A stretch of 64,000 nucleotides of DNA from NCBI RefSeq assembly GCF_057098645.1, contig NZ_CM169472.1; one strand, given 5' to 3'. This document shows positions 27,001 through 30,000 of this stretch, piece by piece; the stretch's first letter is position 1; every line of letters starts with the position of its first letter. The position numbers are program-made.

Positions 27001-30000
27001 TGGAATGCGAAGCGGAAGCCATCGCCCGCATGATTAACCTGGCACAAATTGCCGGTAACGCCCCGCTCTATATCGTGCATCTGTCTAACGGCTTAGGTCT
27101 GGATTATCTGCGTCTTGCCCGTGCGAATCACCAGCCAGTCTGGGTTGAAACCTGCCCACAATATCTCCTGTTGGACGAACGCAGCTACGATACAGAAGAT
27201 GGCATGAAGTTCATTCTTAGCCCACCACTGCGTAACGTACGCGAGCAGGACAAACTGTGGTGTGGCATCAGCGATGGTGCGATTGACGTGGTAGCGACCG
27301 ATCACTGCACGTTCTCGATGGCTCAACGCCTGCAAATTTCTAAAGGCGATTTCAGTCGCTGCCCAAATGGCTTACCCGGTGTGGAAAACCGCATGCAGTT
27401 ACTGTTTTCCAGTGGCGTGATGACGGGACGTATAACACCGGAACGCTTTGTTGAATTAACCAGCGCAATGCCCGCCAGGCTGTTTGGCCTGTGGCCGCAA
27501 AAAGGATTATTAGCGCCCGGTTCCGATGGCGACGTGGTGATTATCGACCCACGTCAGAGCCAACAAATTCAGCATCGCCATCTCCACGACAACGCCGACT
27601 ACTCGCCATGGGAGGGTTTTACCTGTCAGGGCGCGATTGTCAGAACCTTATCCCGTGGTGAAACGATTTTCTGTGACGGCACCTTTACAGGCAAAGCCGG
27701 GCGAGGTCGTTTCCTGCGACGTAAACCGTTTGTCCCTCCCGTGCTCTAACCACTGCCAGGGATCTATACACAATCAAGAATGATGAGTGAGGAAAAATGA
27801 GTAAGAAAATTGTTCTCGCCCTGGGCGGGAATGCGCTGGGCGATGACCTGGCCGGGCAAATGAAAGCGGTAAAAATTACTTCTCAGGCAATTGTTGATTT
27901 AATTGCCCAGGGACATGAAGTTATCGTCACTCATGGTAACGGGCCGCAGGTGGGCATGATTAACCAGGCCTTTGAAGCTGCCGCAAAAACTGAAGCGCAC
28001 TCGCCAATGCTGCCGATGTCTGTCTGTGTTGCATTAAGCCAGGGTTATATTGGTTACGATCTACAAAACGCTTTAAGAGAAGAACTGCTTTCTCGGGGCA
28101 TTAATAAACCTGTAGCAACGCTGGTTACTCAGGTCGAAGTCGACGCTAACGATCCGGCATTCCTCAACCCGACCAAGCCGATCGGTTCGTTCTTTACCGA
28201 GCAAGAAGCAGAGCAACTGACAAAACAGGGTTACACTCTGAAAGAAGATGCTGGTCGCGGCTATCGCCGTGTTGTTGCCTCGCCAAAACCGGTTGATATC
28301 ATTGAAAAAGAAACGGTTAAAGCTCTGGTAGATGCAGGTCAGGTGGTGATCACCGTTGGCGGTGGTGGTATCCCTGTTATTCGTGAAGGTAACCATCTGC
28401 GTGGTGCCAGCGCGGTTATCGATAAAGACTGGGCCAGCGCCCGTTTAGCAGAAATGATTGATGCCGATATGCTGATCATTCTGACTGCGGTAGAAAAAGT
28501 GGCCATTAACTTCGGTAAAGAGAATGAACAGTGGCTCGATCGCCTGTCATTAAGTGATGCTGAACGCTTTATCGAAGAAGGTCATTTTGCGAAAGGTTCT
28601 ATGCTGCCTAAAGTGGAAGCTGCCGCCTCGTTTGCTCGCTCTCGCGCAGGTCGTGAAGCACTGATTACCGTATTGAGCAAAGCGAAAGAAGGGATTGAAG
28701 GCAAAACAGGAACGGTGATTTGTCAGTAATTTAAAGGCCGGGTGGGTAATACCATCCGGCCAAAGATTGTCAAGTAAGTGCGCTTTGTTGATGCCGGATG
28801 CGGCGCGAGCGCCTTATCCGTCCTACAAAACATCGCAAATTCAATAGATTGCAATGCACTTGTAGGCCTGATAAGCGTAGCGCATCAGGCAATTTGGCGT
28901 TTGTCATCAGTCTCAGGCCGGGTGGGTAATACCATCCGGCCATTTTCATTTAAGCCACTTCCAGCACTTCTTTTGTCGCTTTCACGCCCTGATGCATCAA
29001 CATCATTAACGCCTCAAGTACGCCGCCGCCAATCGCCCGGGCTTTATCAGAAACGCTGGTGAAATCAGCGGTTTCACCACGAGGATCGATATCACCAATT
29101 TTAAAACCACCAACCACTGCCAGGCCGTCGTTCAACAAGCCACGCACCATCCCCGTCAACGGTGCTTTAATTTCATGCTCACCAATCCAGGCAATCACAT
29201 CGCCCTCTTTCACCAGATCGCCTAATTTCACGTTGGATCGCATAATGCCTGCAGCAGGAGCACGGATCACCCGTCGGGTGGTATGCCCCATAATATTGCC
29301 AGGAACACCGGTATTCTCCTGCGCACAACCAGAGTAAATCACCTGACCGAGCCAGTGCCCGCGATTTGTTTCAATTACCGCATGACAATCCTTCCCAGCA
29401 GTAAAGCCCGGCCCAAGCGCGATTGTTACTGGTGCCATATCTGCCCGCGTTCCCAAATTCTGTTTCGCCAGAATAGCGTCCACCACGCAAAGCGGTTTCA
29501 GTTCATCAAGCAATGAACAGGCGGGATCTACCATCACAGGGATGAATCCGCGTTCGGTAAGTTTCATCGCTTCCGCAGAGCTGGTTGCCAGGCGAGCAGT
29601 GACGCCTTCGACCGTCATTTCGCCATCGAACACGGCCTGGGCAAACGCCACGGTACAACGAATCACTGTCGGTTTTTCCACTTCCAGCATGATCACTTTA
29701 AAACCCGCATGATACAGACGTAGCGCCACACCACTGGCGATATCTCCCGCACCGCGAATCACCACCAGCTGGTGTCCGGAAGGATGAGAAGGTTTCATCA
29801 TCAGCCCACCCGGCGCGTTATTTTTCACCTGTAATATTTCTGCCAGCACGCTGATGGCGATCTCCTGCGGCGTTTCCGCACCTATGTTGTAACCAACGGG
29901 CGCATGTAAACGGGCAATATGTTCTTCAGCTACGCCTTTCTCACGCAATTGACGCAGGAAAAGCTGAACCTTGCGACGACTTGCCAGCAACCCCAACCAT

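Follow-up and report, generated by a model that had tools for sequence, protein, structure and literature searches.

A hairpin duplicated around a BIME-1 element between yqeA and yqeB of Escherichia coli: probable footprint of a single insertion

How does a spacer between two genes come to carry the same terminator-like hairpin twice, on either side of a pair of repetitive extragenic palindromic (REP) sequences? The question is raised by the DNA between the convergent genes yqeA and yqeB in a stretch of 64,000 nucleotides from contig NZ_CM169472.1 of NCBI RefSeq assembly GCF_057098645.1 (hereafter, the window). An earlier note on this DNA had described one palindrome that occurs twice, 180 bp apart, around two inverted REP-like units, and had offered two alternatives, a duplicated terminator hairpin or a small mobile-like module. 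Our analysis supports both, as two aspects of one event: the succession of hairpin, REP pair and hairpin is probably the footprint of one insertion of a BIME-1 element (bacterial interspersed mosaic element) that duplicated the whole hairpin, as is usual for this family.

A repeat search returns the sequence AGGCCGGGTGGGTAATACCATCCGGCCA at 28735–28762 (left copy; also delimited by folding and by comparison with empty sites) and at 28915–28942 (right copy), both unstranded. The copies are identical at 28/28 positions, lie at a spacing of 180 nt and form a single 28-nt direct-repeat family. The repeat equals the 26-nt palindrome of the earlier note (hairpins at 28736–28761 and 28916–28941) with one A added on each side. 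With up to three mismatches allowed, the 26-mer has only these two sites in the window, and none of 100 dinucleotide shuffles gives a match. Folded, each copy has a stem of 10 bp and a loop of 6 nt, with DNA folding energies of −10.7 and −8.8 kcal/mol for the + and − strands, respectively; the stem has a G·T wobble on the + strand and an A·C mismatch on the − strand.

Judged by sequence comparison, the DNA between the two hairpins is one complete member of the dispersed BIME-1 (RIP/RIB) family with defined ends. The element (28763–28914, + strand; AAGATTG...CAGTCTC) is 152 bp long, and its ends, recognised from family alignments and from its absence at empty sites, coincide exactly with the inner edges of the 28-bp repeat. 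Copies found at other loci in a search of 5,426 complete E. coli genomes match it from position 1 or 2 to position 151 or 152 with 84–90% identity; those at pitA/uspB, satP/mog, fepA/entD, gloC/aspC and tsx/yajD align end to end, and the similarity stops at the repeat edges. The small mobile-like module of the earlier note is this full-length element, which ends at the edges of the duplication and recurs as a unit elsewhere. BIME-1 consists of a Y REP, an L linker with an IHF site and an inverted Z1 REP (PMC3333891). Here, we find one Y REP and one Z1 REP in inverse orientation, the two enclosed units that had been noted before, in a single unit between convergent stop codons; as in a REPIN, the REP doublet is able to form a long hairpin.

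We took a census of the locus in the same E. coli genomes with a junction-specific query. Of the 5,426 genomes, 5,149 have the yqeA end; 1,648 of these have the occupied junction, and the rest (~3,500, ~68%) end after one hairpin. A 73-nt linker-specific query finds the same 1,648 genomes, with one place per genome. In sampled genomes, a 701-bp region is matched either in full (700/701 bp) or as 521/522 bp, a difference of exactly 180 bp, and aligned empty alleles are shorter by just the element and one hairpin and keep the other copy. This single hairpin lies between TTTAA and TTTTCATTT; on the + strand, it is preceded by TTTAAA and followed by ATTTTCATTT. Empty alleles occur in O157:H7, O103:H2, O111:H8 and O25:H4/ST131 genomes, and occupied alleles in K-12, BL21, C600 and enterotoxigenic strains. 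The earlier note had proposed to look among E. coli genomes for the single hairpin without the inner REP pair, and would have been refuted by one identical arrangement, free of size variants, in all relatives; what we see is a common presence/absence variant of 180 bp.

One hairpin and no REP element are also found in the spacers of the Citrobacter freundii complex, Trabulsiella odontotermitis and Pseudocitrobacter corydidari. The unoccupied site thus holds one copy and no more in about two-thirds of E. coli as well as in these three genera, as expected if a terminator-type hairpin was duplicated. The Citrobacter hairpin is clearly orthologous (GGCCGGATG...CATCCGGCC). Stem position 7 is A (GGCCGGATG) in Citrobacter and in the O25:H4 isolate CU568-3; it is G (GGCCGGGTG), the derived state, in the other E. 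coli alleles and in both copies of the occupied allele. Since both copies carry the derived G, the duplication is later than a substitution that arose within E. coli, and since the outgroups have a single hairpin as well, the occupied state is derived and the 28-bp repeat represents a target-site duplication. On this comparison of alleles, the element was inserted within E. coli, and the whole 28-bp hairpin was duplicated as its target site. The ancestral spacer, with a single GC-rich palindrome between A/T-rich flanks, looks like a bidirectional terminator shared by the two genes.

The empty-site hairpin of O25:H4 (ST131; L004:537-562) is a perfect palindrome, GGCCGGATGG, as in Citrobacter. 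The stem G of other E. coli weakens the hairpin on the − strand, where it gives rise to the A·C mismatch.

Is this footprint peculiar to yqeA/yqeB? In a first look, three of five other copies were flanked by similar, locus-specific GC hairpins. A scan for the Y-L-Z1 pattern in one genome per species gave 120 loci from E. albertii, E. whittamii, two E. coli-labelled genomes, Pseudocitrobacter, Pluralibacter and Citrobacter, of which 51 independent loci were kept after both ends had been required, orthologues merged and tandem arrays removed. We aligned locally the 40 nt to the left of each element with the 40 nt to its right and used mismatched flank pairs as control. The median score is 14 for the 51 loci versus 6 for the mismatched pairs (Mann–Whitney p = 4e-25), and 31 of the 51 loci, scoring above the 99th percentile of the mismatched-flank null, have a locus-specific duplicated hairpin.

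These 31 duplications are 16–34 nt long (median 21) and fold as hairpins with a median of −13 kcal/mol. They abut the element closely: the gap to its right end is 0 in 24/31 loci, and in 21/31 one nucleotide, usually C, stands between the left duplication and AGATTG and is therefore part of the element. The centre of the duplication lies within 1 nt of the hairpin axis in 30/30 cases. In 19/30, the pairing of the palindrome could extend beyond the duplication, indicating that the end points are set by symmetric cutting and not by the limit of complementarity. A typical duplication comprises a GC stem-loop with 1–3 A on the left and 1–3 T on the right; more A precedes the left copy and more T comes after the right copy, meaning that one terminator of A-tract, hairpin and T-tract was split in two. 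Sites without a full hairpin have short duplications of 4–7 bp (ATGCTAT, GTATG, AAAGCC, AGCG.. and GGCT). In a hand tally of orientation relative to the T-run, a T-run only on the right (11 loci) and an A-run only on the left (4 loci) gave no significant preference. The flank comparison shows that hairpin-length duplication is, at the level of sequence, the usual footprint of the BIME-1 family.

Some of the loci deserve mention in their own right. In Pseudocitrobacter (L031-L048, L062-L076), the identity between independent copies reaches 98% and their hairpin duplications are perfect, which suggests BIME-1 activity much more recent than in E. coli, where copies are 85–90% alike. In two tandem arrays (L030 and L118), element and hairpin copy alternate; another (L130) has an element every 160 bp with an 8-nt spacer, AGGCGGCT, and a fourth (L016) repeats every 148 bp without a hairpin. 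Such arrays could result from re-insertion into a duplicated hairpin or from unequal exchange. An assembly of Alkalicoccobacillus porphyridii P16 (Bacillales) contains enterobacterial BIME-1 on two tiny contigs of ~1x coverage (L087, 264 bp; L088, 720 bp), almost certainly a contamination.

The relation between filled and empty alleles is the same at all three E. coli loci tested (yqeA/yqeB, pitA/uspB and gloC/aspC). At pitA/uspB, 1,940 E. coli genomes are occupied, and other genomes are shorter by 173 bp, with T7 after their only hairpin, CGAGCGGGTCAGTTTACTGGCCCGC; in the occupied allele, the full hairpin stands on the right (L006:551-576) and the left copy is without its TTTA loop (L006:378-400). 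At gloC/aspC, 2,811 E. coli genomes are occupied, and empty alleles have a single hairpin. In E. albertii, too, gloC/aspC is occupied, by an element with the same idiosyncratic left end and linker; since about half of E. coli nonetheless has an empty site here, the hairpin copies appear to mediate precise removal as well. Two different single-hairpin variants of this locus resemble crossovers at different points between diverged copies. As far as allele comparison can show, duplicated hairpins can recombine, removing the element precisely and restoring the single hairpin. Bachellier et al. are said to have reported in 1997 "excisions of a whole BIME-1" and the presence or absence of whole BIME-1 among E. 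coli isolates. A blast for further filled/empty pairs among the retrieved loci was swamped by tandem-array matches and gave only the orthology of gloC/aspC with E. albertii and a few differences in array size.

In a small sample of several loci, the left hairpin copy is often damaged: the loop is missing at pitA/uspB and the interior in L065. No difference from the empty-site allele is seen in the right copy, the one with the T-run.

A footprint that comprises the whole hairpin, is symmetric about its axis and tracks its length constrains the chemistry, pointing to a staggered double-strand cut that is set by structure. In the simplest case, the palindrome would be extruded as a hairpin or cruciform, bringing both of its feet together. 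Each target strand would be cut at a different foot, 1–3 nt beyond the stem; the element, as a double-stranded copy, would then be joined in, and gap repair would fill both sides, so that the palindrome is copied twice. An ordinary stagger of 4–7 bp at an extruded site would yield a duplication of 4–7 bp plus the palindrome, which fits both classes of site. We propose tentatively, as something possible but short of probable, that BIME-1 spreads by such structure-specific integration at both feet of an extruded terminator hairpin and not by the single-strand RAYT route that is assumed for REPs, with terminators as preferred landing pads and with insertions that are reversible. If this is true, every insertion provides two further landing pads, and the arrays in which element and hairpin alternate would be accounted for.

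The alternative that survives best is insertion of a single strand by a RAYT, after which replication or repair at the hairpin would duplicate it. TnpA-REP/RAYT is active on single-stranded DNA only and cleaves at C^T, sometimes far from the REP; it binds REP hairpins and can cleave at a distance from them (PMC3333891). The architecture of the element is IS200/IS605-like, with subterminal hairpins ~25 nt from each end, and each strand has one REP in active orientation (5' GTAG) pointing outward. Also, the K-12 target stem, GCCGG(A/G)TG...CATCCGGC, resembles a REP stem, although most target hairpins are unlike REPs. Single-strand insertion predicts zero target duplication, however, and the IS200/IS605 relatives of RAYT leave no such duplications (PMC2817692), whereas we find 28 bp here and duplications at most loci. 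From the right end of the element, the nearest C^T is found 2 nt inward (GTC^TC), and the cut in the target apparently fell within the T-run. Simple C^T cleavage by RAYT was rejected as the source of the junctions: it is 2 nt off at the element ends, and the target cuts are in T-runs. On balance, we regard a RAYT insertion followed by duplication as unlikely.

Somewhat less likely still is a history of deletion only, in which E. coli started out with the occupied form and single hairpins were produced time and again through slippage or recombination involving the two 28-bp repeats, which would then be uninformative on insertion. Precise loss is real at gloC/aspC, as seen above. At yqeA/yqeB itself, the E. 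coli isolate WEM25 has an empty allele and matches K-12 perfectly over ~1 kb of flank to either side; in a test for recent excision, its 12-kb flanks differ from K-12 by 133 single-nucleotide polymorphisms (SNPs) overall, and the region is mosaic. The occupied allele is also found on a diverged background, in MS14387. Deletion does not account, on the other hand, for the single hairpin in three other genera, for the substitution, derived within E. coli, in both copies, or for the identity at the junction of ~1,590 of the 1,648 occupied alleles, and it leaves the locus-specific flanking hairpins at 31 loci unexplained. As precise loss occurs, some empty yqeA/yqeB alleles could be secondary; the origin of the duplication is unaffected by WEM25 and by MS14387.

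A two-step history, in which replication slippage duplicated the hairpin in tandem and a BIME-1 was then inserted between the copies, has very little to recommend it. Palindromes are prone to slippage, and the arrays of element and hairpin in L030 and L118 show unequal exchange; nevertheless, only the 700/701 and 521/522 bp classes were sampled, with no element-free intermediate that has two hairpins, and the coincidence would have to recur at 31/51 loci with the element abutting both copies within 0–1 nt. That each convergent gene has a terminator of its own, the two being alike by chance or convergence, is refuted: although each copy is distal to the element for one gene and convergent genes often have their own terminators, the copies are 28/28 identical where chance predicts none, empty-site genomes carry one copy, and mismatched-flank controls reach the observed scores in only ~1% of pairs.

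Several points weigh against the reading of one insertion that duplicated its target hairpin, or against the mechanism proposed for it. Twenty of the 51 loci have no significant long duplication; some have a short one and some none, in part possibly through decay. The only characterised REP-associated enzyme, TnpA-REP/RAYT, which cleaves single-stranded DNA at C^T, fits the footprint poorly. In MS14387 (L142, 12.7 kb), the occupied allele lies between flanks that are 2.1% diverged from K-12 (268 SNPs); there are differences at 27 nt on the left of the insert and at 92 nt on its right, and one nucleotide is deleted from the right hairpin copy. Short-tract recombination is one explanation that this suggests, an older polymorphism another, and either complicates a single simple history. 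To our knowledge, cruciform extrusion of stems of 6–10 bp has not been established in vivo. No donor was found either, as the linker variant occurs only at this locus among the 5,426 genomes and the nearest paralogue is ~90% identical. The source copy must have been lost or be foreign, even though the duplication that the element made is still perfect. Fast evolution in place, considered as a cause of the missing donor, was rejected; orthologous copies diverge no faster than their flanks. Finally, no duplication of hairpins or terminators and no targeting of terminators is stated for BIME-1 in PMC3333891, PMC8266576, PMC3116915, PMC3337134 or PMC8049555, nor in PMC2817692, PMC2884548, PMC3184786 or two recent preprints, a set that leaves out Bachellier 1997, Boccard and Prentki 1993 and Gilson 1991, in which flanking repeats may be described.

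The element of the yqeA/yqeB insertion has five parts. A left terminal arm of 30 nt (28763–28792, + strand), delimited by comparison with the family consensus, is followed by the Y-type REP (28793–28826, +; GCCGGATGCGGCGCGAGCGCCTTATCCGTCCTAC), whose CTAC points toward the linker. The L linker of 35 nt (28827–28861, +) has a putative IHF-type core, ATTCAATAGATTG, at 28839–28851, recognised by conservation and match to the consensus. The Z1-type REP (GTAGGCCTGATAAGCGTAGCGCATCAGGC; 28862–28890, +) lies in inverted orientation and has a single match in the window; like the Y REP and the right terminal arm of 24 nt (AATTTGGCGTTTGTCATCAGTCTC; 28891–28914, +), it was delimited by alignment. The Z1 REP is invariant in 6/6 aligned copies. 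The Y and Z1 REPs form an inverted repeat, which aligns with 5 and with 51 other copies. The outer 15 nt of the left arm are an imperfect inverted repeat of the right end, and in the 152-nt consensus of 51 copies (CAGATTGCTGACAAA...TTTGTCATCAGTCTC), the left end CAGATTGCTGACAAA matches the reverse complement of the right end, GAGACTGATGACAAA, at 12 of the first 20 positions, again imperfectly. The consensus folds at −66.7 kcal/mol with both halves paired.

Read directly from the sequence, the putative IHF site in the linker matches WATCAANNNNTTR at 12/13 positions. The linker core GCAAATTCAATAnATTGCA, also given as GCAAATTCAATAGATTGCA, is conserved in all aligned copies. The Rfam family ES036/CssrF matches the linker at 28827–28869 with 36.3 bits against a gathering score of 37.6. 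Another Rfam family, naRNA4, matches the REPs weakly; both of these "sRNA" (small RNA) families consist of REP/BIME sequence, and the matches are uninformative on mechanism.

The flanking genes are the pair named in the earlier note. yqeA (27797–28729, + strand), a carbamate kinase-like gene named arcC in RefSeq, and yqeB (28950–30575, − strand) were identified as open reading frames and by the RefSeq annotation of identical DNA; the PF00696 AA_kinase domain is carried by homologues of yqeA. The two genes are convergent, and the hairpin/REP unit sits between their stop codons. The right hairpin copy is followed by ATTTTCATTT, forming a distal, terminator-like hairpin for yqeA transcripts, and is the sole terminator-like site that a simple scan flags on the + strand in 28600–29100 (10 pairs, tail ATTTTCATTT). 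Transcripts of yqeB have the left copy as their distal hairpin, with a T/A-rich tail on the − strand; there, it is followed by only TTTAAATT, and the terminator scan gives no flag. After the insertion, the copy with the T-run for each gene would lie beyond the element, and transcripts of yqeA and yqeB should therefore carry BIME-1 in their 3' untranslated regions (UTRs). A palindrome that is repeated directly is repeated in inverted orientation as well, and the two hairpin copies are therefore able to pair and enclose the element; the whole unit of hairpin, element and hairpin folds at −96.4 kcal/mol (z = −6.9).

REP-like sequences of other kinds were seen in passing. A relative with a YqeA 95% identical (L134:2434-2536 and L135:2434-2537) has a spacer without the GGCCGG hairpin, in which a short REP doublet (CTTATCGGGCCTAC..16 nt..GTAGGTCCGATAAG) is flanked by CGCCGCTGGCGA and CGCCGGCGA; these flanks may be another small-hairpin duplication made by a different, shorter REP element. 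Elsewhere in the window, a single Z-type REP follows a partial inverted copy at 58668–58726 (GTCGCATCAGGC..GCCTGATGCGAC), and a short hairpin of REP type, GCCTGATGCGCCCCGCTCATCAGGC, comes directly after a stop codon at 61362–61392. Neither of these two sequences has a flanking hairpin duplication.

Taken alone, the yqeA/yqeB locus is a modest result: a REP element of the ordinary kind, already annotated and polymorphic in E. coli. The class of element, its IHF site, its location at 3' ends and the polymorphism of whole elements are already known. The hairpin-duplication footprint merits follow-up as a direct clue to how REP elements spread. REP/BIME sequences are the most abundant repeats of E. 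coli, and their route of insertion has been open for decades; in papers from 2011 to 2026, the mechanism is called "unresolved", "to be elucidated" or "not fully established", and one of them suggests semi-random insertion. The footprint would identify terminators as targets and offers a junction that can be assayed. It would also explain the position of BIME-1 between stop codon and terminator, and hence its co-transcription into 3' UTRs, the precise loss of whole elements and the frequent intergenic indels of 170–180 bp in E. coli pan-genomes.

How does the element compare with known systems? With BIME-1, RIP and RIB as defined by Gilson, Bachellier and Hofnung, by Oppenheim and by Boccard and Prentki, it shares the Y REP, the L linker, here with a putative IHF-type site, and the inverted Z1 REP, as well as its occurrence as a single, extragenic unit at the 3' ends of transcription units. 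Defined ends at 152 bp, terminal inverted repeats and a target duplication are undescribed for BIME-1 in the accessible literature, outside which the older key papers lie. REPINs and RAYTs (Bertels and Rainey; Nunvar; Ton-Hoang) likewise involve two inverted REPs, a long hairpin, a non-autonomous mobile unit and excision events. The REPIN/RAYT model builds on single-stranded DNA; it involves no duplication of the target and states no preference for one, whereas the element described here has a footprint of double-strand type, its targets being terminator hairpins.

IS1397, IS621 and other members of the IS110 family, and also IS1272, use extragenic palindromes as targets (PMC3184786, PMC5678879). 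Insertions of the IS1397, IS621 and IS1272 type lie within or beside the palindrome, with duplications of 0–4 bp, or "replace" an inverted repeat; unlike for BIME-1 here, duplication of the whole hairpin is reported for none of these hairpin- or REP-targeting insertion sequences. Bacterial MITEs (transposable elements of the miniature inverted-repeat type; ERIC/IRU, Correia/NEMIS, Nezha) have filled and empty sites among relatives and flanking direct repeats (PMC3184786). Our element resembles them in being shorter than 300 bp and non-coding and in folding into a long stem-loop; its ends are similar but imperfect inverted repeats, and its flanking 28-bp target-site duplication has matching empty sites. 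MITE duplications are short and of a fixed length that is set by the parent transposase (e.g., TA), whereas the length of the BIME-1 duplication follows the structure of the target (4–7 bp at plain sites, 16–34 bp at hairpins); a variable, structure-dependent length is atypical for a MITE. No parent autonomous insertion sequence with BIME-1 ends is known to us, although no systematic search for one was made.

When Cas1-Cas2 integrates a CRISPR spacer, and likewise in casposon integration, the incoming DNA is joined at both ends of a partly palindromic repeat of ~28 bp, and gap repair duplicates the repeat. IHF takes part in spacer integration in E. coli. The element at yqeA/yqeB differs in that the insert is a defined unit of 152 bp and not a 33-bp prespacer and that the targets are unrelated chromosomal terminators; nothing points to Cas1. 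By analogy only, the outcome is the same, an insert between two copies of a repeat, and the L030 and L118 arrays alternate in like manner.

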